Shown here in pieces: positions 1 through 16,060 of a stretch of 16,060 nucleotides of DNA. The number at the start of each line of letters is the position of its first letter. Positions within the stretch are counted from its first letter, which is position 1. Under the pieces are notes generated by a model. That model searched no databases. It worked only from the letters and a program-made list of their open reading frames with translations, and was not told the origin of the DNA. This stretch comes from Terrimicrobiaceae bacterium (GTDB lineage: Bacteria; Verrucomicrobiota; Verrucomicrobiia; Chthoniobacterales; Terrimicrobiaceae): positions 1-16,060 of the forward strand of contig JBIIPZ010000053.1 of NCBI GenBank assembly GCA_044342325.1, in the 5' to 3' direction. The position numbers and the translations under genes were made by a program.

Positions 1-12
1 TGATGCTCTTGG

Positions 13-1026: not shown

Positions 1027-1113
1027 ACCCGCAAAGTGGCCGACATGACTGGACAAGTCGAACTCGAATTGGAAAACGAGGGAGTTTTGAGTATGGAAAA
1101 TCGATCGGTCGAG

Positions 1114-1122
1114 TGCTATGAT
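1114..1122 (+). promoter_or_regulatory. Candidate extended -10 promoter (TGcTATGAT) for the aminotransferase
   Basis: TG-c-TATGAT ends 6 nt before the ATG at 1129, with no Shine-Dalgarno in between. Confidence 0.45.
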
Positions 1123-1128
1123 TTCAGC

Positions 1129-2478
1129 ATGAGCACCAGCCCCTCGATTGAAACGCTGCGCGACTTGGACCGGCAATACCACCTGCATCCCTTCACGAAC
1201 CATCTGGACATGCACCAGCCCGGCACACACCTGATCAAGTCAGGCGATGGATGCCACCTCATCGATGAGAACGACCGCCGTCTGCTCGATGGACTCGCCG
1301 GCCTCTGGTGCGTGAATGTGGGCTACAGCTGCGCCCCCATCGTTAAGGCTGTCGAAGCGCAGATGACGAGGCTTCCCTTTTACCCATCGTTTTTCAACAC
1401 CACCACCGAGCCGCCCATCCGCGTTGCGGAATTTCTGGCAAAAAAAGCTCCCGCCCGCGTGAACCGCACAGTGTTTTCAAACTCCGGCTCCGAAGCGAAT
1501 GAAACCGCTCTCAAGCTCATCCGCTCCTACCACAAGCTGCGCGGTCAGCCGCAAAAGAAGAAAATCCTCTCTCGCACATTTTCGTATCACGGAGTGACGC
1601 TGGCCACCTCGAGTCTCACCGGCCTGCCGACAGTCTATGAGCCTTTCGATCTGCCTCTGTCAGGCTTCATCCATGTTCCTGGCCCTCACCCTTACGGCTA
1701 CAACTCGCCGATGGATGCCGAAGCGTTCGGCCGCTGGTGTCTTGAGGAAACCTCGCGCATCATCCGCGAGGAAGGCCCCGAAACCATCGCCGCCATGTTC
1801 GTCGAGCCTATTCAAGGCGCAGGCGGCGTCATTCCGCCGCCTCCAGGCTACCTCTCCGAACTCCGCGAACTCCTCCGAAAAAATGACATCCTCTTCGTTG
1901 CCGACGAAGTCATCACCGCCTTCGGGCGTGTCGGCGATTGGTTCGCCAGCACACTCTGGAATCTGGATCCCGACATCATCACATTGGCAAAAGGCATTAC
2001 CAGCGGCTACCTCCCGCTCGGAGCCACCATGGTCAGTGACGAAATCGCCGAGACCGTTTTTAAAGGTGGCTATTTCGCCCATGGCTTCACCTACTCCGGG
2101 CACCCCACCAGCGCCGCCGCCGCCCTCGCTAACCTCGAAACGATTGAGAACCTCGGCCTGATCGAGCGCGTGAGAGATGATGTCGGCCCCTACTTTCAGA
2201 AAAAACTCCACGCCTTTGCTGACCACCCCGCCGTCGGCGAAATCCGGGGCCACATGCTCATCGGCGCCATCGAACTTCTCCCGAAAGGCGGTCGCGAAGC
2301 CATTACTCCCGCCACCTCGCTCGGCATCCCCGCTGCCGCACACATTCGCAATGAAGGCTCGATCGTCCGAGGCATTCGCAACCTCATCGCTGTGGCGCCG
2401 CCGCTCATCATCACCCACGCTGAAATCGATGAGCTCTTCGCCAGCATCGAACGCGGATTGGAGAAACTCTGGGAGTGA
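1129..2478 (+). CDS. Class III PLP-dependent aminotransferase (omega-amine/putrescine:pyruvate transaminase-like, 449 aa)
   Basis: Motifs LHPFT, DGLAGLWCVNVG, NSGSEANETA, SYHG, FVEPIQGAGG, ADEVITAFGR, TLAKGITSGY (PLP lysine) and HGFTYSGHP. Start taken as MSTSPS at 1129. Confidence 0.93.
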   Translation: MSTSPSIETLRDLDRQYHLHPFTNHLDMHQPGTHLIKSGDGCHLIDENDRRLLDGLAGLWCVNVGYSCAPIVKAVEAQMTRLPFYPSFFNTTTEPPIRVAEFLAKKAPARVNRTVFSNSGSEANETALKLIRSYHKLRGQPQKKKILSRTFSYHGVTLATSSLTGLPTVYEPFDLPLSGFIHVPGPHPYGYNSPMDAEAFGRWCLEETSRIIREEGPETIAAMFVEPIQGAGGVIPPPPGYLSELRELLRKNDILFVADEVITAFGRVGDWFASTLWNLDPDIITLAKGITSGYLPLGATMVSDEIAETVFKGGYFAHGFTYSGHPTSAAAALANLETIENLGLIERVRDDVGPYFQKKLHAFADHPAVGEIRGHMLIGAIELLPKGGREAITPATSLGIPAAAHIRNEGSIVRGIRNLIAVAPPLIITHAEIDELFASIERGLEKLWE

Positions 2479-2565
2479 GCCTTTAAAAAAGGCGGAATAC
2501 GAAAATCGCCGCGAACGGAAGATGTGATTTACTTTTCACGCATTCCCTGATAGACGCCGCTCAAG

Positions 2566-2961
2566 ATGAAACCTTTTGACCCACTGGTTAAGGAACTTTT
2601 GGAATCCGTTCAGACAGAAACCTCATTCAAGAATGTCATGAGCAAGTTTTTAGAGTTGGTTGAAACGACAGATTTTATGTCGCACTGCAATCATAAGAAA
2701 AACGACACGGTGCAACAGTTGTCGGCTTCCGCACTCAAGGCCAAGCTGGGCATCGAGGCTCCGATCAACTCCATGAGGCTTATGCACTACCCCAAGTTTG
2801 ATTTCTTCCATGGCACGGCCTTCATTGCCACAGGGTTCTTCCAAGTTTTCTATTTCCGACGCGAAAAGATCGGCCTCGTTTCAGTGGTCGGGCCCGCAGG
2901 AAGTATGGATTACATCCGCCTCTCGGTGGTCGGCGAGTCCCCAGACCCGTCCCTGAATTAG
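2566..2961 (+). CDS. Hypothetical protein (131 aa)
   Basis: ATG-started ORF that fills the gap between the aminotransferase and the response regulator and has protein-like composition. No motif recognised. Confidence 0.7.
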   Translation: MKPFDPLVKELLESVQTETSFKNVMSKFLELVETTDFMSHCNHKKNDTVQQLSASALKAKLGIEAPINSMRLMHYPKFDFFHGTAFIATGFFQVFYFRREKIGLVSVVGPAGSMDYIRLSVVGESPDPSLN

Positions 2962-2997
2962 GCGTGGCAATCAACCGGGAATCCACTAACAGGAGGT

Positions 2998-3375
2998 ATG
3001 CCCAAGATTCTACTTGTTGAAGACAACGAGATGAACCGCGATATGCTCTCCCGCCGTCTGGCGAAGCGGGGATTCGAAGTCGTCATGGCTGTGGATGGCG
3101 CAGAGGGCGTGGAGATGGCGCGCAGCGCACGGCCGGATGTGATCCTCATGGACATGAGCCTGCCAGTCATGGATGGCTGGACGGCGACGCGGAAATTGAA
3201 GGCGGATGCCTCGACGAGAGGGATTCCAGTGATCGGTCTCACGGCCCACGCTATGGCAGGCGACCGCGAGAAGTGCCTGGAAGCAGGATGCGACGAGTAT
3301 GACACGAAGCCGGTCGATTTCCCCCGCTTGCTGGAGAAAATTCAAGTCCACATTGATAAAAAACCTGCCGCTTGA
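2998..3375 (+). CDS. Single-domain response regulator (CheY/DivK-like receiver)
   Basis: Motifs ILLVEDN, ILMDMSLPVMDG (phospho-Asp), LTAHAM and YDTKP. AGGAGG lies directly before the start. Confidence 0.95.
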   Translation: MPKILLVEDNEMNRDMLSRRLAKRGFEVVMAVDGAEGVEMARSARPDVILMDMSLPVMDGWTATRKLKADASTRGIPVIGLTAHAMAGDREKCLEAGCDEYDTKPVDFPRLLEKIQVHIDKKPAA

Positions 3376-4817
3376 ATCCAGACTCCCACAGCTCACCGGA
3401 TGCAGCGTCCCAGCTGCGTCATGATCTGCGGACGCCGGTCAATCACATCATCGGCTACAGCGAGATGTTGCTCGAGGATGCGGAGGAGTGCGGCAATGAA
3501 TCCAGCGCCTCGGATTTGAAAAAAATCCGCTCCGCCGCGCACGAGTTGCTGGGATTGATCAATACGCGGTTGAGTGCCGGCGGGCTTCAAGAGCTGCCGA
3601 AGCCATCCAATGCTGCGACATGGAAGGGCGGCGATTCCAAGCGGTCGGAGAAACTTTTTTACGGAAAGGTGCTCGCGGTGGATGACAACCGCGAAAATCT
3701 CGATGTGCTAGCGCGCCGTCTGGCTCGTCATGGCTTGGATGTGGAGACGGCGGAGAGCGGGCTTGTGGCCTTGGCTACGATCCGCTCCCAAGCGTTCGAC
3801 TTGGTGCTTCTCGATGTCATGATGCCGGGCGTTGATGGCTATACGGTGCTGCGGGAATTGAAGTCGGATCCGGAGACCCGGGACATTCCTGTGATTATGA
3901 TTTCGGCGTTGGATGAATTGGATAGCGTCACGCGGTGCATCGAGGCGGGTGCGGAGGATTACCTCCCGAAGCCCTTCGACCCGACGCTGCTTGAGGCCCG
4001 CATAGGCGCCTGCTTGGAAAAGAAAGCCCTGCGCGACGCCGAGCATGGGCATTTGCACAAAATCGAGGAAACCCAAAATCGCTTGGATAAAGAGCTCGCC
4101 GAGGCAGCGGCCTATGTGCGCTCGACCCTGCCTGTCCCGACGGAATCCCCTCTCCCGGTGAACTGGAAATACCGCCCCTCGAGCGAACTCGCTGGGGATT
4201 CCTTCGGCTACCATTGGATCGATGCGGAGCATTTTGCGATTTACCTGCTGGATGTCTGCGGGCACGGCGTCGGAGCCTGTCTGCTCTCGGTCTCCGCCAT
4301 CAATGTCCTGCGCTCGGGTTCTCTCCCAGGCGTTGATTTGCGAAATCCCGGCGAGGTGCTCACGGCATTGAACAACGCGTTTCCGATGGAGAAGCAGAAC
4401 AACCTCTACTTCACTCTCTGGTATGGCGTGTATCACGCGCCAAGCCGCACCCTGAGCTTCGCCAGCGGCGGGCATCCCCCGGCGCTTTTGCTTGAGCCCA
4501 CCACTAGCGGAGCGTTTCAATCCCGCCGCCTGAGCTCGAATGGTATGATCATCGGAGTGATGGAAGACACGCCATTCAGCACGCAGAATTGCACCATCCT
4601 GCCGGGGGCCAGGCTTTATGTGCTGTGCGATGGATGCTATGAAATCCGCAACGCATCAGGGGAGATGGCGGATTATGCGGCATTCGAGGCCTTCATGACG
4701 GCCCATGCCGACTCCCCGGATCCGCTCGGCGACTTGGAAAACTGGGCCATCGCACAACGCGGCGAGAGCACTTTGGAGGATGATTTTTCCATCATGCAGA
4801 TTCAGTTCCCCGCATGA
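3372..4817 (+). CDS. HisKA-like helix + receiver domain + PP2C/SpoIIE (RsbU-like) serine phosphatase
   Basis: N-terminal H-box [19 protein letters not shown]. Receiver motifs AVDDN, LLDVMMP and YLPKPF. PP2C motifs AGDSF, DVCGHG, CDG and EDDFS. The TTG start overlaps the upstream stop. Confidence 0.92.
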   Translation: MNPDSHSSPDAASQLRHDLRTPVNHIIGYSEMLLEDAEECGNESSASDLKKIRSAAHELLGLINTRLSAGGLQELPKPSNAATWKGGDSKRSEKLFYGKVLAVDDNRENLDVLARRLARHGLDVETAESGLVALATIRSQAFDLVLLDVMMPGVDGYTVLRELKSDPETRDIPVIMISALDELDSVTRCIEAGAEDYLPKPFDPTLLEARIGACLEKKALRDAEHGHLHKIEETQNRLDKELAEAAAYVRSTLPVPTESPLPVNWKYRPSSELAGDSFGYHWIDAEHFAIYLLDVCGHGVGACLLSVSAINVLRSGSLPGVDLRNPGEVLTALNNAFPMEKQNNLYFTLWYGVYHAPSRTLSFASGGHPPALLLEPTTSGAFQSRRLSSNGMIIGVMEDTPFSTQNCTILPGARLYVLCDGCYEIRNASGEMADYAAFEAFMTAHADSPDPLGDLENWAIAQRGESTLEDDFSIMQIQFPA

Positions 4818-5230
4818 ACGAGCAGCACTCCATTCGCATCGGGAATTCCATGACAGAGGTGGCATCCGCGCTGGACGAAGTCGCGAACTGGATCGAGCCG
4901 CTTCAAGTGTCAGCGAAGGCGCGATATTTCTTGAGCCTCGCCATCGAGGAATTGGCTACGAACTGGATCAAATACGGATGCCGCGACACAGGTGCGCATT
5001 CCATGATATTTGATCTCTTGGTCTGTGATGGCAGGCTGACCCTCACAGCCACAGACGATGGCCTCCCCTTCAACCCCATGGACGCGCCAGTGCCCTCGAC
5101 CAACCTTCCGCTTGAGGAACGCGATACCGGAGGGCTTGGCATTCTTCTCTTGCGAAAAATGGCCGATGAAATGAGCTATGAGCACCGCGAAGGAATGAAT
5201 ATTCTCACACTCGAAAAAGCACTCTACTGA
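4814..5230 (+). CDS. Anti-sigma factor / serine kinase, RsbW/SpoIIAB-like (HATPase_c_2)
   Basis: Motifs LAIEELATNWIKYG, TDDGLPFNP, GGLGILLLRKMAD and GMNILTLEK. ATGA overlap with the phosphatase gene. Confidence 0.92.
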   Translation: MNEQHSIRIGNSMTEVASALDEVANWIEPLQVSAKARYFLSLAIEELATNWIKYGCRDTGAHSMIFDLLVCDGRLTLTATDDGLPFNPMDAPVPSTNLPLEERDTGGLGILLLRKMADEMSYEHREGMNILTLEKALY

Positions 5231-5237
5231 TCCAACG

Positions 5238-5864
5238 ATGAGCAAACTTGATATCAAAATCCGCTCCAAGCCCCACTCCGAGCAATTCCGCGAAGTATTC
5301 ATGACGCTTTCCGGGACATTGGACGCAACGACCGTTCTGAAATTCGAGAGGGAAATCGCGACGCTCATTGCGACAAAACCGCATCGGATCGTGCTGGAAA
5401 CCGCCGAGGTCAACCACATCCATGGGCAGGTTTTTGAAATCCTGAACAATGCCCATGCGGAGCAGCGCCGCCACGACGGGGAACTCCTGATCATCAATAA
5501 GCATGAGGTTGTGGAATCCATTCGCCTGGAGGCGCGAGATCTCGATGGCGTGCAAATTGTGAAACTCAGCGGACACCTGGATATTCGAGGCGTGGCCAGC
5601 ATCGAATCGAGGTTTCTGGAATTCTTTGAAACTGCAAATCCACAAGTGTTGGTGGATTTTTCAACAGCGGATTCGTTGTCATCCCTTGGAATTCGTCTGC
5701 TGCTTCAAGGCATTAAAAACGCGGCAGCACGAGGCGGACGCACCTTGATCTTGAACCCCACGCCACCGATCTCCGCCGCGCTGGAGACCGCCGGCCTGGG
5801 CCAATTCATTGCCCGTGGCACGGAGGCTGAGATCGCCGCCGGGTTCCCAGCCAGCAAAAAGTAA
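5238..5864 (+). CDS. Tandem STAS-domain anti-sigma factor antagonist (RsbV/SpoIIAA-like)
   Basis: Two STAS-like halves (LSGTLDA...IVLE and LSGHLDI...[15 protein letters not shown]). Only the second half has the phosphorylatable Ser motif. Confidence 0.88.
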
Positions 5865-5888
5865 AATGTTACTCAAAAATATTTTGTT

Positions 5889-6021
5889 TAACCACGGAGG
5901 ACACGGAGAGCACGGAGGAGAATTGCAAGCCGAAGGAAAAATCCTCCACGGCTTTTTGCCCTTTTCTACATGCTGCGAAACCTCATTTTCTACTCCGTGC
6001 TCTCCGTGCTCTCCGTGGTTA
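5889..6021. repeat. REP/MITE-like element with 29-bp terminal inverted repeats made of 9-bp CACGGAGAG units
   Basis: 5889-5917 taaccacggaggacacggagagcacggag matches the reverse complement of 5993-6021 (taaccacggagagcacggagagcacggag) at 27 of 29 positions. Confidence 0.85.
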
Positions 6022-6040
6022 TTCCCCCTCAAACCCATTC

Positions 6041-8074
6041 ATGGTTGAGAAACTGATGAGTAAAAGCCACGAAGTCATTTTCTCGAAAGCAGGTGTTTTT
6101 ATTCGATCCCTGCTGCGCTTCGGCATTGCCCGCCAGTTGCAATTCTTTGTCGCGCTTGCGGCCATTGTCACCTTAGGGATTACCACTTGGACAAACTACC
6201 GGCTTGGCAGGGCGGAATTGCTGAAAGTGGCCAATGCGCGGGCCATGACTGAAGTGACCGACTCCGCCCGCGAACTGGATGATTTGTTTTCCCGCATCGC
6301 CATGCTGCCGCGCAGCATCGCCACATTGCAGGAGGCCTACGGCAACACGCCCGACCCGGCCATGACGAATTTCCTCCGTGAGTTGATGGCTCGCACGCCG
6401 CCGGAGGATGTTTACGGGCTCTACATAGCCTACGAGAATGTCGACTCCTTCTTAGCCTTCCACCGCAGATTCTGGCCGAACCTCACCCCGCTCGAATACG
6501 ACTACCGCGCGCCGGGGCAGGAATGGTATCAGGGCCCAAAAAACACAAGGACTCTGTTTTTTACTGAACCCTACTTCGACGAAGGCGCAGGAAATACCAG
6601 CATGGTCAGCCTGACTGTTCCCGTCATTGGAAAGAACCAAGAATTCCTCGGCGTGGCCGGCGCCGATCTGTCGCTGGAGCAAATCCGCCGCATGGTGAGC
6701 GCGATTCACATCCGGCTCCACATGGATTCGGTCAGCGAAAAAACTAACGATCAGATCGCATATCTCATCAGCCGCAGTGGCCGCATCATCGCTCATCCCG
6801 AGCCTACGCTCATGTTGAGAAAGGATTTTCCCGGAGCCGAGCTCGCGACCCTGCCGGCCGGAAAGGAAATCGCACAACGCGCGGAGGGCTTCGAGGCATT
6901 TACTGCCGGAGGGCACGCGATGCGGGCGTATTGGGCCACCGCACCACTCGCGAAGTGGAAACTTGTGCTCATCGTCCCCGAAGCCACCATCCTCGAGCCC
7001 GTGGTGCAAATGGCCTGGCAAACCCTGCAAGTTGGCTTGGGAGGAGTGGTGTTGGCCGTGCTCATGGCCACAGTCGTGGCACGACGGTTTTCAAGACCCG
7101 TCCTGCGACTCCGCACCGCTTCCAGCGCATTGCAGGAGGGCGAGTTCAAAAGCCTAGAACTTTCAGACCTCACCCGCCGGGCCGATGAACTCGGAGATCT
7201 TGCTCGCACTTTCGAAACCATGGCGGAGCGCATCAAGATGCGGGAACTTGAACTCGCGGATATGAACCTGAACCTCGAGTCCACCGTCGCCCAGCGCACT
7301 TCGGAGCTCGCTCAGGCCGTCAAGTTGGCCGAGTCGGCAAACCGCACAAAAAGCGCCTTCCTCGCCAACATGAGCCATGAACTCCGCACTCCGATGAACG
7401 CGATCATCGGCTACAGCGAAATGCTGGCGGAGGAGGCCGAAGAACTCGGTCAGGAAGGCTTCTTACCGGATCTCAAAAAAATACAAACCGCCGGCAAGCA
7501 TTTGCTCGAACTCATAAACGATGTCCTCGACCTGTCCAAAATCGAGTCAGGCAAAATGACCATCTACTACGAAAACATCGAAATCGCCACCATGGTTCGC
7601 GACATGGAATCCACCATGCAGCCCGCCGTGCAAAAGAACGGCAATACGCTCACCATCGAAATGCCCGACGACATTGGCAGCATGCAGAGCGACCTCACAA
7701 AAATCCGGCAAACCCTCTTCAACATCCTCGGCAACGCCGCGAAATTCACCCAGGAGGGTCAGATCAAGCTCACAGTCGGAGCGCATACCAAAAGCCGCCG
7801 CCAATTTATCAGTTTTGCCATCTCGGACACAGGCATCGGCATGAAGCCAAATCAACTCGAAAGGCTCTTCGAACCATTCACCCAAGCCGACGAATCCACA
7901 ACACGCAAATACGGCGGCACAGGTCTCGGACTCGCCATCAGCCGCAGATTTTGCAGAATGCTCGGCGGCGACATCGAAGCGCAAAGCAAACCCCGCAAAG
8001 GATCAACCTTCACAGTCACCCTACCCCGCAAAACAAAAAAGCCCCCAAAGACCGAGACCTCCACAGAGTCTTGA
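6041..8074 (+). CDS. Membrane sensor histidine kinase (TM - dCache-like - TM - HAMP - HisKA - HATPase_c)
   Basis: Two hydrophobic segments. Cache motifs QEWYQGP, FTEPYFD and [24 protein letters not shown]-box [19 protein letters not shown]-box [11 protein letters not shown] boxes DTGIG and GGTGLGL. An alternative start exists at 6056. Confidence 0.95.
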
Positions 8075-8112
8075 GGCAACTGCGAGGTATTGCTCGCCTC
8101 GTTGCGCGGGAT

Positions 8113-8508
8113 GGTCATCGTCTCGCATGACCCAAATTTCAGCCGAGTAGCGGCGTTTCTGCCTGATACGATGGCGGCGCTGCCGCGCATATGCAGGTCA
8201 GCGACGGCGCTTGGTGGTAGGAGCGTGACGATGCGATGGCGGAGCCGTGCAATCTTGGGTCAAGCCGGAGGTTGACCCTCCAACGGTTTGCACGATGCCG
8301 CGCGGGTCGTGAATCCGGGAGGGTCATCGTCTCGCATGACCCAAGTTTCAGCCGCGTAGCGGCGTCTCTGCTTGATGATATTGCGGCGTTGCCGCGTAGA
8401 TTGGTGAGCGACGGCGCTTGGTGTTGGGAGCGTGACGATGCGATGGCGGAGCCGTGCAATCTTGGGTCAAGCCGGAGGTTGACCCTCCAACGGTTTGCAC
8501 GATGCCGC
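8113..8508. repeat. Two tandem copies (8113-8301, 8322-8508) of a ~188-bp palindrome-rich non-coding element
   Basis: The last 82 bp are identical (8220-8301 = 8427-8508) and the 5' parts are diverged. Internal stems are GGTCAT/ATGACC, CGTGCAA/TTGCACG and GGGTCAA/TTGACCC. Confidence 0.92.
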
Positions 8509-8533
8509 AGAATCCCTTCTCGCGGTTTTCGGG

Positions 8534-9220
8534 CTAAACTTCCCGGCCGCCGTAGAGCCGCTCCAACCGGATGCGGGCCACGGCCAAGCTTACCTCGAAG
8601 GTATCTCGCACCAGGGCATGGAGAGCCGGGTCCTCCCATGCACGAGTGGCCGCCATGCTCTCGGGCTCATGCCCCCACCCTCTCAGTGCCGCACGAAGAG
8701 GAAAGACCGGCAGGAGCAGCGCAGAAATCATCCGGTCTGCCTGGTATTCCCACCAGTCCGGGGAGTTCTTGGTAAAATGGCCTTCCACATTCTCGTTCCG
8801 CTCGCGCCAAGTAATGAGGCGACGCGAATCCTCAAAGCCACCGGTGCGTTTTTTCTGCTCCCACAGCTCCAAAAAGAGATCGGTGTGCAGCAGACCGTGG
8901 CCACACTCATGGGCGAGCGTGCTCCGGCAGCGGCGGTTCACCACCGGGTTTTCCGGATCATTGAGCTTGGTATGCACAAACAGACCTTTCGGCCCCGTCT
9001 CGCCAAAATGCATGAGGCCCAAACAATCCTCGCCGAGATCGCGGAACTCATAGCTGAACCCGAATTCCATATCTACGAAGAGTTCGATATTCACCGGCCC
9101 GGGAACTTTGGAAATGAGCCCATGCCGCTTGAGTGCCTCCCTTGCTATGTCGTCGAACTCGTGTTCCTCAAACCAGCGCCGCCTCAGGAACGGCCCCGAC
9201 TTGGCCGGCAAATCCTTCAT
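8534..9220 (-). CDS. ImmA/IrrE-family zinc metallopeptidase (228 aa)
   Basis: Motif RRCRSTLAHECGHGLLH (HEXXH), then EYQADRMISALLLP and C-terminal FEVSLAVARIRL. The ATG at 9220 overlaps the xre stop (ATGA). Confidence 0.92.
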   Translation of the reverse strand: MKDLPAKSGPFLRRRWFEEHEFDDIAREALKRHGLISKVPGPVNIELFVDMEFGFSYEFRDLGEDCLGLMHFGETGPKGLFVHTKLNDPENPVVNRRCRSTLAHECGHGLLHTDLFLELWEQKKRTGGFEDSRRLITWRERNENVEGHFTKNSPDWWEYQADRMISALLLPVFPLRAALRGWGHEPESMAATRAWEDPALHALVRDTFEVSLAVARIRLERLYGGREV

Positions 9221-9588
9221 TCGCCTTTTTTCTCGTCCACCCGCACCTCGATCAAGCGCACCAGACCTCCCGGCGTGAGATTCGAGTTCTGCGCCTCCTT
9301 TACCATCCGCCGGAAGGCAGTGGCCCACTCGGGATTCTCCTCCACCAACCTCCGGATTTCACTCACCGGGGCGCGGTCATCGAGTTCCTTCAATTCCTCC
9401 ACGGGCACCTCCAGCGCCTGCGCGATCCGCTCCAGATTTTCCGGTGCGGGTTTGCGATACCCCTTTTCGATGTCTGCGATAAACGCCACAGACTTGATGC
9501 CCGCCTTCAAAGCGAGCGCACGCATTGAGAGTTTTTTCTCCAGGCGAAGCTGGCGAATGCGGTCCCCCAGCGAGTTTGCTTGGCTCAT
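9217..9588 (-). CDS. XRE-family helix-turn-helix transcriptional regulator (123 aa)
   Basis: LGDRIRQLRLEKKLSMRALALKAGIKSVAFIADIEKGYRKP...LERIAQALEV is a typical HTH_3 sequence. Start MSQANS at 9588. Confidence 0.93.
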   Translation of the reverse strand: MSQANSLGDRIRQLRLEKKLSMRALALKAGIKSVAFIADIEKGYRKPAPENLERIAQALEVPVEELKELDDRAPVSEIRRLVEENPEWATAFRRMVKEAQNSNLTPGGLVRLIEVRVDEKKGE

Positions 9589-9622
9589 ATTTAGTTGGAT
9601 TAATTTTTCATGCGTTGTCTGC

Positions 9623-9708
9623 TTGTTTGCGAACAACGGCCGGGAAGTCTCCATTCAATCCCGCAAAATGTCAAAGATAATTTTGTTACAAATTATTTAC
9701 AGAAATAA
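9623..9708. promoter_or_regulatory. AT-rich divergent control region: minus-strand TTGACA -35 and several palindromic operator candidates
   Basis: TTGACA on the minus strand at 9669-9674, with GAGACT 17 nt further on. Palindromes TTGTT-TGCG-AACAA (9623-9636), ATAATTT-N6-AAATTAT (9677-9696) and TTATTT-ACAG-AAATAA (9693-9708). Confidence 0.55.
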
Positions 9709-9760
9709 TAAAAAAACCGTTTGCAGCGTTCGCAGTGTGCGCGTAAAAAATTCACATGTC

Positions 9761-9862
9761 ATGAAAGGAACCTTAAAAAACCTCCATGACAACGCACCTG
9801 CCACCGAAGCCGACCGGCCGCACAAAGCGGACCCGGAACTACCGGACGAGGCGGCACGGTGA
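9761..9862 (+). CDS. Possible 33-aa peptide (MKGTLKNLHDNAPATEADRPHKADPELPDEAAR)
   Basis: ATG-started short ORF located first after the divergent promoter. No motif. Confidence 0.25.
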   Translation: MKGTLKNLHDNAPATEADRPHKADPELPDEAAR

Positions 9863-9904
9863 CGCCGGCGGCGAAATGCGCGTCGGCAAAAAGCAAAACG
9901 GCCC

Positions 9905-10399
9905 ATGCCAAAAACCAACCAAATCCACGCAACATTAAGCCCCGAGGCGATGAACAACATCAAATCGGCCATCGCAACCATCCAATCGAACCTCCCGTTC
10001 CTCGTGGACCTCGGAGCCGATGAGATCCGCCGTTTGGCGAAAGCCGGAGACCTCACTGAGAGTTTCCTCCAAAAGGCCCTCGTCATCGCCGAGCAATCCC
10101 CGGATATCCTCCCGCGCAACTTCGCGATCGAGGAGTTCCGGGCTGACATGGCGCTTGCAGCGAACCTTGAGGAGATCACCCACGCCCTCCAGCAACTCCT
10201 CGAGCGCATCGGCAACACAATCACAGTCGCCCGCTCGGATGCCTACGGCCATGCACTGATCACCTACGACCGCAGCAAAAAAAGCGCCCCACAAGGCCTC
10301 CACGCTGCGACACTGGACCTCGGTCAGCGTTTTGCCCGCCGCTCCCAAGGTAAAAAGACGGAACCTGCCCCGGCCCCGCAGTCTCAGATTCTGAGCTGA
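9905..10399 (+). CDS. Conserved hypothetical alpha-helical protein (164 aa)
   Basis: Amphipathic helical sequence with LPFLVDL, LAKAGD, FLQKAL, PDILPRNF and ARSDAY. From memory it resembles an uncharacterised family seen in cyanobacteria and Bacteroidota. It is followed by a terminator. Confidence 0.85.
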   Translation: MPKTNQIHATLSPEAMNNIKSAIATIQSNLPFLVDLGADEIRRLAKAGDLTESFLQKALVIAEQSPDILPRNFAIEEFRADMALAANLEEITHALQQLLERIGNTITVARSDAYGHALITYDRSKKSAPQGLHAATLDLGQRFARRSQGKKTEPAPAPQSQILS

Positions 10400-10429
10400 C
10401 GCCGGCCTGACCACGCAGTTCCTCCCATT

Positions 10430-10471
10430 GCGGCCGTGTGCTTCACCGAAGCACACGGCCGCTTTTCTTTT
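10430..10471 (+). terminator. Rho-independent terminator
   Basis: Perfect 15-bp stem GCGGCCGTGTGCTTC-acc-GAAGCACACGGCCGC followed by TTTTCTTTT. Confidence 0.9.
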
Positions 10472-10547
10472 ATTCGGGAACGACAGGAACCCAACGCACC
10501 CGATGCTTGAGACAAAAAATCCATGCAATGCCCCCCCCCTTGCGCGC

Positions 10548-10826
10548 CGCACTACTCACTGGAGATTAAAAATCACTCATCGATGAGTGCCACCTCACTC
10601 AACGGAGACCGAAATCAACTCGGCATTCTATACCACCTCACTCTATGGAGATTGAAAACGACTCGTCACTGTGTTCCACCTCACTCTATGGAGATTGAAA
10701 ACAACGGATCGTTGAGTTCCACCTTACTCTACGGAGACTGAAAACAACTCATCGTTGAGTGTCACCTCACTCAAAGGAGAGTTGAATGCCCCTCACCATT
10801 GAGCCTCGCCGCACTCGATTCAGTGT
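10548..10826. repeat. Degenerate 43-bp tandem repeat array (6 units plus a partial seventh)
   Basis: Units start at 10548, 10591, 10634, 10677, 10720, 10763 and 10807. Approximate consensus CACCTCACTCTATGGAGATTGAAAACAACTCATCGTTGAGTGC. Confidence 0.92.
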
Positions 10827-11051
10827 AACTTTTGGACTCCTTCACGCGTCCTGGAGTGCCTCCCATTTGTTAGTAATTTTTTTTCAAAAAAATTTTTGCA
10901 CCCCCAGCGGATGTCTAACCGGGCTTGTTAGGCTCCAGTCGAAATGATCACCAAAATTCTATCCGCCACCCAAGTAGCCACGCGCTGCTTCCGCCCGCAG
11001 TCCCAATTCCCAAGCCGCTTCGCGCGGCAGAGCGAGTTTGTGTTTTGAGCT

Positions 11052-11354
11052 ATGGAGACCAACGCCTATGGAAAACCGATTCGGGATCGCGAGTTGCTTC
11101 GCCGAATCGAAAAAGCCCGAGCCGAACAGTGCCTGAACGACCCGCAAGGCGCACTCCATGACCCCATCGAGGATGCCCCGGACATCAGGCCAATCGTAAG
11201 GCAAGTCGAGCGCCGTGCCGAAAAGGAGTCAGCGATCCAAGGCATGGGCCGCTGCCACGATGTTTGGGGCCGCATGCGCAGTATTCTGAAAACCGAGCAC
11301 GGCATAGTCTGGTATCCACCCAGCCAGATGAATACCCACATCCTCTTCGATTGA
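11052..11354 (+). CDS. Conserved hypothetical protein (100 aa)
   Basis: The pattern DPIED...GMGRCHDVW...ILKTEHGIVWYPPSQMN..ILFD looks like a small uncharacterised family. Translationally coupled to the next ORF. Confidence 0.8.
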   Translation: METNAYGKPIRDRELLRRIEKARAEQCLNDPQGALHDPIEDAPDIRPIVRQVERRAEKESAIQGMGRCHDVWGRMRSILKTEHGIVWYPPSQMNTHILFD

Positions 11355-11356
11355 GC

Positions 11357-11827
11357 GTGAGATTTCTCGTGCCACGCATTCCTTTTATCCGCCTGCTCCG
11401 CGCTGTTTGCAGCGGTATGCAGCCGATGTTGCGCATTCGGGCCTCGGAGGGGCGTGTGACGCTCTCCTGCGGAGAGATCGGAGGCGGGTGTGAAGGCACT
11501 GTCGAGCGGGCCGGCGTGTGCTTTCTTCGCCATTCTAAGTTGAAGAAGCTCATCCAGACCTACCATGCCGATGCTGGGCACTCCACAACCATCGAGATCG
11601 AGGTGACGCCGGTCGGAATTCGTGTCGGGCGCACCGAGGTTTCGCGCGCAGGCTGGGAAATCTCGCTCTTTGCAAATCCCGCATCCGCCCCGAAGACGCT
11701 CCGCTTTCGCGATCCGTTTGTGCCAGAGGAACCACCCCAAGTGGACTTGCAAATGCAACCGCCCTTGTTTCCCGCTGGCGTTGACGATGCTGCATTGACC
11801 TCCACTCCGCGCCACACGCCATTTTAA
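11357..11827 (+). CDS. Hypothetical protein (156 aa), possibly one beta-sliding-clamp-like domain plus a Pro-rich tail
   Basis: GTG at 11357 (or TTG at 11351) follows the upstream stop, and the TAA overlaps the next ATG. Residue pattern resembles DnaN domain I by eye. Confidence 0.65.
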   Translation: MRFLVPRIPFIRLLRAVCSGMQPMLRIRASEGRVTLSCGEIGGGCEGTVERAGVCFLRHSKLKKLIQTYHADAGHSTTIEIEVTPVGIRVGRTEVSRAGWEISLFANPASAPKTLRFRDPFVPEEPPQVDLQMQPPLFPAGVDDAALTSTPRHTPF

Positions 11828-12243
11828 TGAACGCTATCACCCCGCTCTTTCTTGCTCTGCTCCTGAGCGCCTGCACCGCTATTCAGAAACCCGAGCCAGA
11901 GATCAAGCGCGCGCAGCCCAAGCCACAGGAAATCCAGATCCAGACCGCACCACCAGGCGCACTGGTGGATTGGAACGGCAATGTTCTTGGCGTGGCTCCC
12001 GTCACCATCGAGCTCACGCCATCGTTCTACCAGTATGCCTCGCATTACACCTGGCCCTCAAATGGAGCCCGCACCCAGCGCTTCCGCGCCCGCTGGCCCG
12101 ACGGAGCCATGAACACCGAATTCTTCGACAGCAACACCCCGCCGCCGCAAGCCATCGCCATCGTCTCACCAAGCGTTGGCAACTACCGCGACATTTGGAC
12201 CACACCCGCCAAGAAGGAACTGCAAATTAAGAAAGGACCATGA
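11827..12243 (+). CDS. PEGA-domain lipoprotein (138 aa)
   Basis: Signal peptide with lipobox LLLSA-C. IQIQTAPPGALVDWNGNVLGVAPVTIEL is a PEGA-type motif. Confidence 0.85.
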   Translation: MNAITPLFLALLLSACTAIQKPEPEIKRAQPKPQEIQIQTAPPGALVDWNGNVLGVAPVTIELTPSFYQYASHYTWPSNGARTQRFRARWPDGAMNTEFFDSNTPPPQAIAIVSPSVGNYRDIWTTPAKKELQIKKGP

Positions 12244-12286
12244 ATCTCTGCCGCCTATCCATTTCATTCTTTGAAAACTCACCATT
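12007..12286 (+). repeat. Direct repeat copy 1 (~280 bp; 3' half of the PEGA lipoprotein gene plus downstream bases)
   Basis: Near-identical to 14455-14735, with a constant offset of 2448 across the coding part. Confidence 0.95.
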
Positions 12287-12421
12287 TAAAAATTGCTCCT
12301 CCACTTTTTCGGGTGATTCCGGTAAGCTTGGATATCCGAAGAAGATGCCGATGCATGAAACACGGTTCAAGTTCGCAGGACTCTGCGACTACCGCACAAG
12401 ACCACTTGAAGGGATGAAACA

Positions 12422-12914
12422 GTGAAGGAAATCGCTTATATCGAAACGACCATCGTGAGCTATCTGGTTGCCCGGCCTAGCCGCGATCTGGTGCTCTCTG
12501 CGCACCAGCAGGTGACGAGGGAGTGGTGGGAGAACGAGCGTGTGAATTACCATTGCATCGCCTCCGAGGAGGTCGCGCGCGAAGCCATGCTGGGTGATAC
12601 CGGAATGGCGCAGGCGAGGATCAAGGTCCTTGAGGAGGTGCAGATCGTCGGAATCACCGCCGAGGTCGAGGCGATGGCGGCCACATTCATGGCGACGGGT
12701 GCACTGCCGCCCACGATGCGACCTGATGCGACGCACCTAGCCGCTGCGACGCTGAGCGGAGCGGAGCGGAGCGGACTACCTGCTCACATGGAACTGCCGG
12801 CACCTGGCGAATGCCCATGTGCTGCGCAGGCTGCAAAAGGAGGCGGAGAGGCGTGGCTGGCAGTTGCCCGGAGTTTGCACGCCTCTGGAACTCATGGGAG
12901 ACTGCGAGCCATGA
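12422..12914 (+). pseudogene. PIN-domain (VapC-like) toxin gene, frameshifted at a (GAGCG)4 repeat
   Basis: The N-part has YIETTIVSYLVARPSRD...TREWW...DATHLAAA. The conserved C-part DYLLTWNCRHLAN...VCTPLEL is in another frame from 12774 and stops at 12912-12914. The pentamer repeat at 12754-12773 sits at the junction. Confidence 0.88.
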
Positions 12915-13150
12915 TCACTAATCCTCTCTTGGAAGAAATCTGGGCGGTCAAAGACCGGCTGAATGCGGAGTCCGGCGGGGACATTCATGTTTTTTGCCAG
13001 CAACTGCGGGACTGGTCGGCAAAAAACCTGCCCCGGAATATGGTAGTGTGCGACCCCGCGGGACTGCGCGCGTTGCTCGTAAAGGAAGACCAAGAGGATT
13101 CCTTGATTTTAAGGGAGGATCCGCCGGAATACGGCCGAAAGAAGGACTGA
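12911..13150 (+). CDS. Small partner of the PIN gene (putative antitoxin, 79 aa)
   Basis: MITNPLLEEIWAVKDRLNAESGGDI..., with an ATGA overlap at the restored PIN stop. Resembles the 'DPIVEEVR' small proteins found next to this PIN family. Confidence 0.75.
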   Translation: MITNPLLEEIWAVKDRLNAESGGDIHVFCQQLRDWSAKNLPRNMVVCDPAGLRALLVKEDQEDSLILREDPPEYGRKKD

Positions 13151-13250
13151 CGCGGCATGAAGTTTCAGCTCAAGGATTTTCAGGCGACTTTCCGAAACTC
13201 GCAAAATCCGCTTCGTCGGAACCCACGCGCAGTATGACAAGATTCGGACG

Positions 13251-13841
13251 ATGAAACCAACTCCTCACATGCCCGTTTGCCATTTGATTGCCGGACCAAA
13301 CGGAGCCGGGAAGTCCACCTTCGCTCTGGAGCACCTGCCAGCTTTGGCAAAGTGCATTGAGTTTGTGAATGCCGATCTCATCGCCGCTGGTTTGTCGCCC
13401 TTGGACCCTACTCGCAGCGCGCTTCGCGCCGGGCGTTTGGTTTTGGAGCGCATCAAGGAATTTGGCTTGGCTAAAAAAACCTTCGGCTTCGAATCCACAC
13501 TCTCCGGTCGAAGTTACCTCTCCACCTTGGCGGAATTGAAAAAAATGGGCTTCCGCTTAGCGCTTTATTACCTCTGGCTTCCGTCGCCCAAGGTCGCAAT
13601 CGCCCGCGTCAAAGGACGAGTGAAGCTCGGAGGGCACCATGTTCCCTCTATCGACATCCGCCGCCGGTTCCAGCGCTCGCTTGAGAATCTCCCTGCCTAT
13701 TTTGCCATCGCAGACGAGTTCTTTCTGTTCGACGCATCCACTTGCCCTCCGACGCCTGTTTTTTCGAAAACGATGGTCGGCGTCCAAATCGAAAACCCCG
13801 TCACATTCCGGAAAATCTCACCACATCTCGACCTGCCATGA
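13251..13841 (+). CDS. Zeta-toxin-like / COG4185-type P-loop ATPase
   Basis: Walker A IAGPNGAGKSTF, then FVNADLIAAGLSP, FESTLSG and RVKGRVKLGGHHVP. An alternative start exists at 13269. Confidence 0.9.
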   Translation: MKPTPHMPVCHLIAGPNGAGKSTFALEHLPALAKCIEFVNADLIAAGLSPLDPTRSALRAGRLVLERIKEFGLAKKTFGFESTLSGRSYLSTLAELKKMGFRLALYYLWLPSPKVAIARVKGRVKLGGHHVPSIDIRRRFQRSLENLPAYFAIADEFFLFDASTCPPTPVFSKTMVGVQIENPVTFRKISPHLDLP

Positions 13842-14059
13842 AAACCGCTCACCAACGCATCCAAGAAATTTCCAAAGTCATGAAGAGGGCCGTGGAGAAA
13901 GCCGCCGAGAAGCACCGGCTCATGGGCGTTCCGATGGCCGTTTGGAAAGACGGGAAAGTCGTCGAGTTCCTGCCCGAACCCGCCCGCGAACCACACGGAA
14001 ACAATCTTCTGCCCTCCGTCACCTTTCTGGAAACAAAACGCAAACCCGCCAAGAAATGA
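13838..14059 (+). CDS. Small partner protein of the zeta-like ATPase (putative antitoxin, 73 aa)
   Basis: MKTAHQRI...KRAVEKAAEKHRLMGVPMAVWKDGKVV is typical of small genes coupled to this ATPase family. ATGA overlap with the ATPase stop. Confidence 0.8.
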   Translation: MKTAHQRIQEISKVMKRAVEKAAEKHRLMGVPMAVWKDGKVVEFLPEPAREPHGNNLLPSVTFLETKRKPAKK

Positions 14060-14226
14060 ACCCCAATGTGACAATAAGCGGGGGACTGACCACATCCATT
14101 TCCGACACCCTTAGAGGCAACCTCATTCTCATGTCTGATGGTCTGCTTGCTCCCATAGACCTCCGCATTCAAAAACTCTCCGGAAGCCTCCTCGATATCG
14201 CGAAATCACTCACAGCAACGCAATGA
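14056..14226 (+). CDS. Possible 56-aa ORF or gene remnant
   Basis: The ATG overlaps the previous stop (ATGA). Sequence MNPNVTISGGLTTSISDTLRG...; no motif recognised. Confidence 0.3.
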   Translation: MNPNVTISGGLTTSISDTLRGNLILMSDGLLAPIDLRIQKLSGSLLDIAKSLTATQ

Positions 14227-14454
14227 TGCCAGTGAATTTCACAAAACAAAATCCTCCGTCCTGCTAATTCTGCTAATTGACTCGCTTCCGCTTACCCTAC
14301 GGGCTGCTTCCAGCGCTCTTTCTCCGCTCCGATTCTGTCCAAAAAATGCTTTCTGAATCGAAAATCCAATGCACCGTAAAGAGCATTTTTTATACTGAAA
14401 CCGATTCGCAGTTTATTGAATGTCAATAAATAGTTCCTGCCCCCTTCACTACCG

Positions 14455-14735
14455 ATCGAACTCACGCCATCGTTCTACCAGTATGCCTCGCATTACACCT
14501 GGCCCTCAAATGGAGCCCGCACCCAGCGCTTCCGCGCCCGCTGGCCCGACGGAGCCATGAACACCGAATTCTTCGACAGCAATACCCCGCCGCCGCAAGC
14601 CATCGCCATCGTCTCGCCAAGCGTTGGCAACTACCGGGAGATTTGGCCCGCCCCTGCCAAGAAGGAACTGCAAATTAAGAAAGGACCATGAATCTCTGCC
14701 GCCTCTCAATTTCATTCTTCAAAAAAACCACCATT
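14455..14735 (+). pseudogene. Direct repeat copy 2: start-less 3' fragment of the PEGA lipoprotein gene
   Basis: Encodes IELTPSFYQYASHYTWPS...KKELQIKKGP-stop (TGA at 14689-14691) without the signal peptide or N-terminus. Confidence 0.9.
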
Positions 14736-14763
14736 CATTCAAACTCACGCCCAGCCCATCTTT

Positions 14764-15915
14764 GTGCCTGCTAAAAAATCATCAAAGTTGAATCCTCCAG
14801 CGCCGCCCGAAATCGGCAGTCGCTTGGCACGCGGTCGAACCCGCGAGGACGCTCGTTTCACCGCGCCACCTTCGCTGGCGGGCTTACCGGACTCCTATGG
14901 CACCACATTGGAGGAGATCAAGAGTCATCTGCGCAGCGCGCGTGTCCGTGCCGTTCTGGCAGCCAACCCCATCGTCATCGAAGCCTATTGGCATACCGGA
15001 AAAATCATCCTTCAGCGCCAACTGGAAGCTGCCTGGGGAGCCAAGGTCATCGACCGCCTCTCCGCCGATCTCCGCGACGCCTTCCCCGACATGCGGGGCC
15101 TATCGACACGCAACCTGCTGGCAATGAAAATATTCGCCCGCGAGTTTCCGAAAGCTCCAATTGCGCAACAACCTGTTGCGCAATTGCCCTGGGGCCATGT
15201 TCTGCAGATCCTTCAGCGAATCAAAGACTCTGCCGTTCGAGACTTCTACATCCAGCAAACCATCGCCCACGGCTGGAGCCGAAGCATCTTGGAAATCCAG
15301 ATCGGGCAACAACTCCATTTGCGGATCGGCAAAGCTCAAAACAACTTTTCCGCCACCCTCCCCCCCTCGGACTCGGACCTCGCTGTTCAGGTCTTCAAAG
15401 ACCCCTATCTTTTCGACTTCCTTGGCACAGCCGATCCCCGCCGCGAGGCCGAGGTCGAGCAGGCCCTTGTCGATCACATCCAACAGTTCCTTTTGGAATT
15501 GGGAGCCGGTTTCGCCTTTGTTGGACGCCAAGTGCATCTCGAGGTCGGTGACGAGGATTTCTACCTCGACCTCCTTTTCTACCATCTCAAGCTCCGGCGC
15601 TATGTCGTCATCGAACTCAAGGCCCGCGCCTTCGAACCCGGCGATGCCGGCCAGATCAATCTCTACCGCTCTGCCGTGGACGATTTGCTCCGCCACCCTG
15701 ATGACCAGCCCACGATTGGCCTTCTTCTATGCAAGGGAAAAAACAAGGTCCTCGTCGAGTATGCCCTCAGCGGCCTTGAGCAATCCATCGCTGTCGCGGA
15801 TTGGAAAACCCAGCTCACTGAGGCCCTCCCTCCTGAATTCCAAGGCAGCCTACCCACCATTCAGGAAATCGAAGCCGAACTCTCGCGTGATTTGCAGAAG
15901 GAGGAAGAGCGATGA
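14764..15915 (+). CDS. yhcG: YhcG/DUF1016-family PD-(D/E)XK nuclease-domain protein (383 aa)
   Basis: Motifs YWHTGKII, WGAKVIDRLSADL, QLPWGH, KDPYLFDFL, FLLELGAGFAFVGRQ, DLLFYHLKLRRYVVIELK, GQINLY and PTIGLLLCK. The GTG start is uncertain. Confidence 0.93.
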   Translation: MPAKKSSKLNPPAPPEIGSRLARGRTREDARFTAPPSLAGLPDSYGTTLEEIKSHLRSARVRAVLAANPIVIEAYWHTGKIILQRQLEAAWGAKVIDRLSADLRDAFPDMRGLSTRNLLAMKIFAREFPKAPIAQQPVAQLPWGHVLQILQRIKDSAVRDFYIQQTIAHGWSRSILEIQIGQQLHLRIGKAQNNFSATLPPSDSDLAVQVFKDPYLFDFLGTADPRREAEVEQALVDHIQQFLLELGAGFAFVGRQVHLEVGDEDFYLDLLFYHLKLRRYVVIELKARAFEPGDAGQINLYRSAVDDLLRHPDDQPTIGLLLCKGKNKVLVEYALSGLEQSIAVADWKTQLTEALPPEFQGSLPTIQEIEAELSRDLQKEEER

Positions 15916-16060
15916 AACCTCAGCGTAAAAAAGCAATGGGCCAAGAGACCAGCGTTGAGCCCTGTTCAAATCCACAATCCAACATTCAAAATTAGCCTGC
16001 TCTGCCACTTAACCCCCGTCCTGCTCATCGTGTTTATCCTGTAAATTGAATCGCTTCCGC

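Follow-up and report, generated by a model that had tools for sequence, protein, structure and literature searches.

We analysed a stretch of 16,060 bp from a Terrimicrobiaceae bacterium (contig JBIIPZ010000053.1, positions 1 to 16,060), referred to below as the window, and more particularly a non-coding tandem array of 43-bp units that it carries. The window is part of a bacterial chromosome, with genes for Obg, an aminotransferase, a partner-switching module and a Cache-HAMP histidine kinase. The array adjoins a conserved operon, composed of two genes that we name geneX and geneY and of a lipoprotein gene, inside phage-defence islands. It is separated from geneX by 226 bp. The coordinates of the features are given in Table 1. 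An original prediction, made from the letters of the sequence alone, had described the array and suggested several functions for it, and its claims are taken up below together with the results that bear on them.

A phased array of 43-bp units

Tandem Repeats Finder detects a repeat of period 43 at 10561-10786 (5.2 copies, 75% matches, 0% indels). The unit core CACCTYACTCNNNGGAGANNRAAA, searched with at most 3 mismatches, is found 6 times at a spacing of exactly 43 bp. Its chance expectation is 0.01, and 6 matches were reached in none of 200 shuffles. The 43-bp array proposed in the original prediction, with a last unit of 44 bp, is thus confirmed. The units abut, with no unique spacers and no variable DNA inserted between them, and all of them measure 43 bp except U6, which has one additional base after GGAGA. 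The consensus of the unit is CaCCTcACTC-nnn-GGAGAtTgAAAac-nACtcatCgtTgagTnC. In all 18 units of the three genomes described below (six units each), ACTC (positions 7-10), GGAGA (positions 14-18), A23, C34 and T37 are invariant. The second halves, for their part, show strong differences among units. The sequence CGCCGCACT is present on both flanks of the six units, and the 10 kb to each side contain no inverted copy of the unit. A coding repeat was rejected, in agreement with the original prediction: the variable columns of the array have no 3-base periodicity (12/10/8, p=0.67), and a 72-aa open reading frame (ORF) at 10523-10741 is not kept in one of the related genomes (L010, see below), which has a 4-nt gap upstream.

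On the + strand of 10545-10830, ACTC occurs 11 times at spacings of 21, 22, 21, 22 bp and so on, versus about 1.4 copies expected from its density over the window (80 per 16,060 bp). Counted from the first ACTC, the series comprises 14 slots that are 21-23 bp apart, 12 of which are filled in the window and 13 in each of the two related arrays. It runs past the six clear units into a promoter-like motif, slots 13 and 14 being those of a degenerate seventh unit. The conserved features of the array are the direct-repeat ACTC box every 21-23 bp and GGAGA once per unit, not palindromes. The original prediction had placed two ACTC-N6-GAGT-like palindromes in each unit. The spacing of 21-22 bp that it gave for ACTC holds, but the sites are mostly not palindromes: GAGT occurs only 4 times, ACTCNNNNNNGAGT has just 3 perfect matches besides 8 with one mismatch between 10554 and 10857 (17 matches in the whole window versus 4.0 +/- 1.9 expected), and the arms decay without compensation. 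Two of the three perfect matches to ACTCNNNNNNGAGT are in the second-half position, and a perfect palindrome of 16 bp, CACTCATCGATGAGTG, is present in U1. In units 2 and 3 of all three genomes, whose second halves are in an identical state, the second-half palindrome has decayed, as it has in unit 4 for the window and L010; these decayed forms are conserved across species.

Conservation and selection

A collection of 185,579 species, represented by one genome each, was scanned once with the unit core, and 12 loci were returned. The same array is present in only 2 of these 185,579 species genomes, namely Spartobacteria bacterium UBA5019 (locus L010) and a Terrimicrobiaceae bacterium (locus L011), both of which are metagenome-assembled genomes (MAGs) of Chthoniobacterales-type Verrucomicrobia. 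The 10 other loci were rejected as single chance matches, of which about 17 are expected (36-bit pattern, 1.2e12 positions, our own arithmetic), and a hidden Markov model of the unit finds nothing further there. A BLAST search with the array and its leader against 72,556 plasmids and 50,697 phages gave no match.

Both related arrays have six units of 43 bp, the last of 44 bp, and match the array of the window unit for unit without any indel. Since unit-specific features are retained across species, concerted evolution and recent slippage are ruled out. Between the window and L010, homology extends from 8525 to 11000 (92.3% identity). Between the window and L011 it covers only 10545-11000 (86.8%), from the first unit on, apart from one 3'-end gene fragment elsewhere. 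L010 and L011 share the array and about 370 bp beyond it (88.8% over 644 bp). The conserved block thus goes from 10545 to about 11000, the seventh unit included, and the flanks past the limits of homology are unrelated. Moreover, the L011 array lies on the opposite side of a symporter-QueC-QueE block compared with L010, and it is reversed relative to this block. Unrelated flanks and different placement indicate that a non-coding block of about 450-640 bp was kept while its surroundings were exchanged.

The identity of the arrays is 92.7% between the window and L010, 92.3% between the window and L011 and 91.9% between L010 and L011. For comparison, the core genes shared by L010 and L011 have 76.9% DNA identity over 2,893 bp, and geneX of the window is just 40% identical, at the protein level, to the C-terminal domain of the gene that follows the L011 array. 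Between species, 30 of the 259 array columns vary, and they are unevenly placed. Variation affects 4 of the 96 sites that are invariant among the six units of the window versus 26 of the 162 other sites (Fisher p=0.004), the two classes having been fixed, from invariance among the window's own units, before the cross-species comparison. With classes set post hoc, none of the 54 ACTC and GGAGA sites vary, versus 13 of the 30 sites of the 3-nt gap and positions 26-27. The alignment with L010 has 0 gap columns out of 262 in the array, versus 6 out of 146 upstream, 12 in the AT-rich spacer downstream of the array and 7 in 10961-11045; the array aligns with that of L011 without gap columns as well. 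When only the window and L010 are compared, the array (7.3% divergence) is no better kept than the third codon positions of the gene at 9905-10399 (14/165) or the upstream intergenic DNA, so that the case for selection rests on the substitution pattern and on L011. Judged by these comparisons, the array is under purifying selection on the repeated motif and is not a neutral minisatellite.

The leader and the operon downstream of the array

The array is preceded by a strong intrinsic terminator, which lies 85 bp upstream of it in the window and in L010. This terminator insulates the array from upstream + strand transcription in these two genomes; L011, with its different upstream flank, does not have it. 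No sigma-70-like promoter site was found in the window, L010 or L011 with a scan that does not cover the promoter types of this phylum. Just past the six units, each of the three genomes has a motif G[GT]AA[CT]-N17-CGTC at an identical offset of 271 from the first ACTC. We take it to resemble the promoters of extracytoplasmic function (ECF) sigma factors. By our own arithmetic, about 0.01 occurrences of this motif would be expected on one strand of the 226-nt leader. It can be regarded as a candidate promoter of the geneX operon, a lead and not a result. In the inverted repeat that spans its -10-like part, L011 has one arm change that is wobble-compatible on the + strand and another that breaks a pair. 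The AT-rich spacer that follows is 81.8% identical to that of L010. A small ORF of the leader (MITKIL...) has mostly non-synonymous changes between L010 and L011. A weak terminator-like site is located ahead of geneX in the window (11019-11036). L010 has no equivalent + strand site between array and gene, and L011 has one on the array's strand (9720-9699), between the array and the ATG of the gene, which is not at the aligned position.

Homologs of the geneX protein make up at least 121 clusters at 90% identity, and their length is 100 aa in almost every case. The protein is predicted to be all-alpha (AlphaFold2, pLDDT 89.7), and it has no match in Pfam, NCBIfam, PADLOC, PHROGs or the sequences of the PDB. 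Its fold matches nothing in the PDB either (best E=1.6), and the atlas search gave unnamed clusters only, below 0.9. A profile search with the geneX domain yielded 631 representative clusters at E<=1e-3, in which the domain is always C-terminal. The domain has a nearly invariant G-R-C-H-D motif. Another Pfam family was found in 6 of 25 long forms: TPR (2), Tpt1/KptA RNA 2'-phosphotransferase (1), AI-2E (1), DUF4131 (1) and a weak zinc ribbon (1). As far as these domain assignments go, the fusion partners point to no clear function. In L011, the geneX domain is fused behind a membrane helix, predicted by our own reading of the sequence, and a proline-rich linker. In a metagenomic relative (P0115), the N-terminus of geneX is fused to the C-terminus of the lipoprotein. 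Homologs of geneY form 89 clusters (137-163 aa), and the full-length ones begin with MRFLVPR... There was no Pfam or PDB match for geneY, and its AlphaFold2 model is poor (pLDDT 39.9). Both families are named just 'hypothetical protein', with source names that point to MAGs of Verrucomicrobia and Spartobacteria. The PEGA-like lipoprotein is weakly similar to the PEGA-like protein encoded after the L011 geneX (26% over 65 aa, pairwise E=5e-4). No PDB sequence match was obtained for the other downstream proteins.

Different defence genes are found at the three loci. Downstream in the window these are YhcG/PDC-S02 and an AAA_33 kinase together with a Kinase-PolyVal-like gene. L010 encodes SoFic, a type III restriction-modification system and HEC-06, and L011 encodes type I Zorya (ZorABCD) and PD-Lambda-2_B.

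Table 1. Features of the locus (coordinates refer to the window unless stated otherwise)
Feature	Coordinates	Strand	Remarks
Array	10545..10806	+	six units; homology to L011 begins exactly at 10545
Array units	U1 10548-10590, U2 10591-10633, U3 10634-10676, U4 10677-10719, U5 10720-10762, U6 10763-10806	+	
Degenerate seventh unit	10807..10849	+	opens with CGCCGCACT like U1; both ACTC boxes (10813, 10836) kept, GGAGA not; overlaps promoter-like motif
ECF-sigma-like motif (candidate promoter)	10825..10850	+	points to geneX; ACTC slot 14 within its spacer
Inverted repeat ACTCC-N12-GGAGT	10836..10857		ACGCGT centre; spans -10-like CGTC
AT-rich spacer	10869..10902		34 bp, 79% A+T; 62 bp past unit 6; length and sequence vary between genomes
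Conserved leader blocks	10903..11000	+	CCCCCAGCGGATGTC..ACCG...TTG.TAGGCTCC and GAAATGATCACCAAAAT; homology to L010 and L011 stops at about 11000-11045
geneX	11052..11354	+	100-aa protein, predicted all-alpha; first gene downstream of array
geneY	11357..11827	+	conserved hypothetical; GTG start directly after geneX stop
PEGA-like lipoprotein	11827..12243	+	third operon gene; weak PEGA match below Pfam cut-off
Strong intrinsic terminator of the upstream gene (9905-10399)	10430..10462	+	15-bp stem, 11 GC pairs, then T-run
164-aa gene	9905-10399	+	weak LemA-like match; divergent from capP/capH-like pair; substitutions relative to L010 by codon position 3/1/14
capH-like XRE regulator	9217-9654	-	overlaps capP-like ORF by 112 nt, different frame
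capP-like ImmA/IrrE peptidase	8534-9328	-	
R repeat copies	window 14324-14430; L010 11310-11442, 11464-11574, 13011-13122, 13149-13227		

Possible functions of the array

Our preferred reading, which we put forward tentatively and at somewhat less than even chance, is that the array is a phased DNA docking platform for a protein and acts as an operator or silencer on the adjacent promoter. It would be a cis-acting DNA element of fourteen direct ACTC boxes, one per two helical turns, with every second box extended to ACTC-N3-GGAGA-N3/4-AA. The boxes would form a same-face platform on which a sequence-specific DNA-binding protein could assemble cooperatively. Such a platform would start near -300 and reach into the spacer of the promoter-like motif directed at the geneX-geneY-lipoprotein operon. 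If this ECF-like motif is a promoter, a protein filling the phased boxes would reach the promoter itself. The likeliest effect would then be control of the promoter by repression or silencing through occlusion, and recruitment would be less likely. As the three neighbourhoods have no DNA-binding gene in common, any binder would have to be encoded elsewhere, and the binding protein would probably be a host factor. A same-face protein-binding platform had been proposed in the original prediction. It is favoured by the 14 phased slots, by the selection on the motif, by the absence of indels from the array but not from the non-coding DNA around it, by an identity of the array above that of the core genes and by the lack of support for an RNA (see below).

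The partition site parH/OF of plasmid TP228 offers a possible model. There, ParG coats arrays of ACTC boxes upstream of parFG cooperatively, with one dimer per box (PMC3130281). A further precedent is sopC of the F plasmid, whose direct repeats of 43 bp are bound by SopB (PMC3177203, see below). We first compare the array with parH/OF. Like the present array, this site contains many degenerate ACTC boxes, mostly direct, located upstream of an operon and reaching its promoter, so that the array could double as an operator. However, the boxes of TP228 are separated by 4-bp AT-rich spacers and have an 8-bp period, versus 21-23 bp here. The array also differs by the extra invariant GGAGA at every second box, by its chromosomal location in a defence island, and by the fact that no homolog of ParF or of the ribbon-helix-helix (RHH) protein ParG was detected among the genes scanned (those of the window, L010 and L011, over about 10 kb on each side).

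Several observations weigh against the docking platform. The centres of ACTC and GGAGA are about 7.5 bp apart, which is not the classic two-groove spacing. The lack of a DNA-binding gene common to the three neighbourhoods is itself unfavourable, and the predicted all-alpha geneX has no match to known DNA-binding folds and occurs in a membrane-anchored form in L011. The L010 array is intact though geneX is cut there after about 45 codons, and the array may therefore not be there to serve geneX. Over the window, the ECF-like motif is no more frequent than chance would have it (2 observed, 1.5 expected per 16 kb, both strands), and it was picked up only after other promoter types had failed. In addition, two elements of the unit would fit an RNA as well: the invariant GGAGA, which resembles a Shine-Dalgarno sequence, and GAAAAC, an A-tract similar to those cleaved in type III antitoxin RNAs. 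Finally, with so few sequences, a lack of covariation is weak evidence against an RNA.

The strongest of the alternatives, which we nevertheless consider unlikely, is indeed that the array is transcribed into a tandem-repeat RNA. This RNA could be similar to type III antitoxins, with 43-nt units that would each restrain one module protein, or it could be a CsrB-like sponge for a protein that binds ACUC-N3-GGAGA. The strictly held unit length without indels, the presence of one invariant GGA-containing motif and one A-tract per unit, and the defence-island setting would fit such an RNA. A small conserved gene follows on the same strand, with the weak terminator-like site ahead of it in the window. 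Local hairpins are also found: on the + strand, unit 6 of each of the three genomes forms ACUC-(A/U)AAGGA-GAGU, the loop of which contains GGA, and on the - strand a run of 5-6 U comes after the unit 1 hairpin, at the very border of the conserved block, in two of the three genomes (not L011). The type III toxin-antitoxin arrays ToxI, CptI and TenpI are, like the present array, fixed-length non-coding tandem repeats of tens of nt, in a defence context and with a small downstream gene. The order of such loci is promoter, repeats, terminator and toxin, and tenpI repeats may differ by up to 35% (PMC12283969). For the present repeats, the scan for sigma-70-like sites found no promoter-like site upstream, where the flank is not conserved in L011. 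The sole promoter-like motif comes after the array, and no clear terminator follows the repeats. The all-alpha geneX is not a relative of ToxN, CptN or TenpN and has no other Pfam or PADLOC match, the array persists in L010 without an intact geneX, and the units diverge strongly in their second halves.

The tests made at the RNA level argue in the same direction. Rfam searches with the array region, the whole window, L010 and L011 gave no gathering-score match in the window, only chance-level microRNA matches, and no tRNA or tmRNA gene was detected. The repeat RNA of small hairpins envisaged in the original prediction finds little in its favour: the consensus fold of the unit amounts to an invariant 3-bp CUC/GAG stem only, and the fold is not stabler than shuffles (z-scores of the minimum free energy, -1.68 for the + strand and +0.10 for the - strand). 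Covariation across homologous arrays, which had been suggested as a check, is absent at the unit level, with 0 of 8 pairs compensatory in a comparison of three genomes, two of them MAGs; the ACTCA/TGAGT hairpin (helix 2) is paired in 78% of the cells. For the full element, compensatory changes were seen at 2 of 101 pairs, which belong to a helix located outside the array units, and the long-range pairing between units proposed by RNAalifold rests on invariant columns. As for a sponge, the RNAs CsrB and RsmZ carry a repeated GGA motif, one per 15-20 nt. The array shares with them a repeated invariant motif that contains GGA, but it has one motif per 43 nt, GGA is mostly outside the hairpin loop, and neither a promoter, a terminator nor an Rfam match was found. 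A more specific proposal is that the array is transcribed and cut into 43-nt units, which would be the RNA partner, antitoxin or sensor, of an undescribed geneX/geneY defence module. It would constitute a fourth lineage of type III-like toxin-antitoxin systems, with a new all-alpha protein, in Verrucomicrobia, and we would give it only a small chance.

We likewise doubt that the array is the iteron set or the centromere of an integrated mobile element, i.e. an origin with an AT-rich unwinding region or a partition site like sopC or parH, with a protein partner encoded outside the available sequence. Plasmid iterons are direct repeats of 17-22 bp, spaced by about 22 bp and situated beside an AT-rich region, and they are accompanied by a Rep gene and usually by DnaA boxes. 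The array resembles them by its non-palindromic direct repeats on one face of the DNA, spaced by two turns, and by the AT-rich stretch located about 60 bp past the array in all three genomes. The different chromosomal contexts of the array in these genomes suggest mobility, and ACTC is the ParG box. However, the AT stretch is conserved neither in sequence nor in length, the units alternate between two types, and no DnaA box TTATCCACA was found at <=1 mismatch in the window. None of the families Rep, ParA, ParB, ParM, TubZ and RHH was detected among the ORFs scanned at the three loci, and there is no similarity to plasmid or phage records. The sopC site of the F plasmid has the same period as the array. 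It is made of 12 direct 43-bp repeats, each with a 16-bp inverted repeat bound by SopB (PMC3177203). The tandem direct 43-bp repeats and the perfect 16-bp palindrome of U1 recall this arrangement, whereas the palindrome is intact here in a minority of the units only and is not the conserved part, and sopA- or sopB-like genes are absent from the ORFs scanned. The labels of iteron, centromere and repressor sponge used in the original prediction each lack a defining feature.

We attach a lower probability still to a role as a site of recombination or as the conserved edge of an integration hot spot; the block would then be kept by the exchange of islands at or next to it. The homology with L011 starts at the first unit and ends 190-370 bp past the last one, with unrelated defence genes on both sides, and the L011 array is reversed and placed on the other side of the symporter-QueC-QueE block. 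The flanking copies of CGCCGCACT and other scars of rearrangement nearby (a 271-bp direct repeat, a 207-bp duplication and R elements, see below) are also compatible with such a site. However, no integrase, transposase or recombinase family was detected among the ORFs scanned, the 10 kb to each side have no inverted copy of the unit, no variable DNA lies between the units, and selection on a six-fold repeated motif would be left unexplained.

A neutral or decaying minisatellite without function is very improbable. In its favour, the array is no better kept between the window and L010 than nearby third codon positions or upstream intergenic DNA, but the substitutions are uneven, indels are absent, the L010-L011 identity of the array exceeds that of the core genes, and unit-specific features are kept, so that concerted evolution does not account for it. 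The original prediction had linked such a minisatellite to a lack of conservation of period or palindrome in relatives; period, unit number and motif are in fact kept in the only two related arrays found. Weakest of all, and hardly credible, is an array derived from or mimicking clustered regularly interspaced short palindromic repeats (CRISPR), with ATTGAAAAC as the handle of the CRISPR RNA. The tandem-repeat guide RNAs of VIPR, which were excluded as well, have 5-nt YNNGG units, not 43-nt ones (bioRxiv 10.64898/2026.04.26.720920). The ...GATTGAAAAC end and a CACTC/GAGTG hairpin may resemble some CRISPR repeats, as had been remarked in the original prediction, but no Rfam match was obtained at E<=10, CRISPR direct-repeat models included, the array has no unique spacers, and no cas family was detected among the ORFs scanned at the three loci.

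If the array is an operator or silencer, as we favour, it would mark an undescribed regulatory protein and a control logic for genes of defence islands. If it acts as RNA, it would mark a new RNA-protein defence pair. Phased arrays on which protein filaments assemble are known almost solely from plasmids and phages of model bacteria. Here we have a chromosomal example of a phased array in a poorly studied phylum, with clear signs of selection. It heads an unknown operon of three genes in defence islands and was retained while the surrounding genes were swapped. The motif ACTC-N3-GGAGA, at a phase of 43 bp, provides a short handle for pull-down experiments and for finding the module in metagenomes, where geneX and geneY form 121 and 89 clusters, respectively.

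Other features of the islands

Upstream of the array, a + strand ORF (8495-9862) was rejected as a gene, its substitutions relative to L010 being distributed 51/12/28 over the codon positions. The - strand ORFs opposite to it, which are the capP-like and capH-like genes, have 17/7/45 and 7/6/14. The capP-like, capH-like and 164-aa genes probably constitute a regulated defence module of its own, which is 91-96% identical in L010, in another chromosomal context. The capH-like regulator was considered as a binder of the array, on account of its upstream position, and rejected: its own intergenic region contains no ACTC-N6-GAGT-like site, and the gene is absent from L011. A 207-bp tandem duplication (1.9 copies, 90% matches) is located at 8107-8508, between the stop codons of the histidine kinase gene (8074) and of the capP-like gene (8534). 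Its end coincides with the start of the homology to L010 (8525), and the variable region may have its left border there. Further upstream, a partner-switching set (2998-8074) comprises a receiver protein, a HisKA-receiver-SpoIIE phosphatase, an RsbW-like HATPase_c_2 kinase and a tandem-STAS protein, followed by the Cache-HAMP histidine kinase. All of them are common signalling genes, and nothing evident connects them with the array.

Besides the array, there is another family of non-coding repeats. This family, R, of about 110 bp and with the core ...AAAAATGCTTTCTGAATCGAAAATCCAATGCAC...TTTTATAC..., is represented by five copies in two genomes and by none in L011. R elements precede the island genes SoFic, type III methylase and YhcG/PDC-S02, and they might act as a common promoter or leader cassette. 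An R remnant was suspected immediately upstream of the array, but an nhmmer model of R does not find this sequence and the idea was dropped. On the other side of the operon, the 3' end of the PEGA-like lipoprotein gene is part of a 271-bp direct repeat (12007-12277 and 14455-14725, 95% identical). The two copies flank a 2.2-kb segment that contains the genes for a 242-aa protein, the AAA_33 kinase and the Kinase-PolyVal-like protein, and an R element. This pair looks like the scar of an insertion or duplication. The Kinase-PolyVal-like gene lies 3.3 kb downstream of the array in the window, where the R element comes after it, and directly upstream of the array in L011. Its 3' ends in these two genomes (window 14096-14226, L011 10231-10361) are 92% identical. 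In L010, past a breakpoint at its position 10542, fragments take the place of the geneX frame, among them a Fic-like C-terminal domain (L010 10393-11018), and what lies downstream of the array there is an accumulation of broken island genes.

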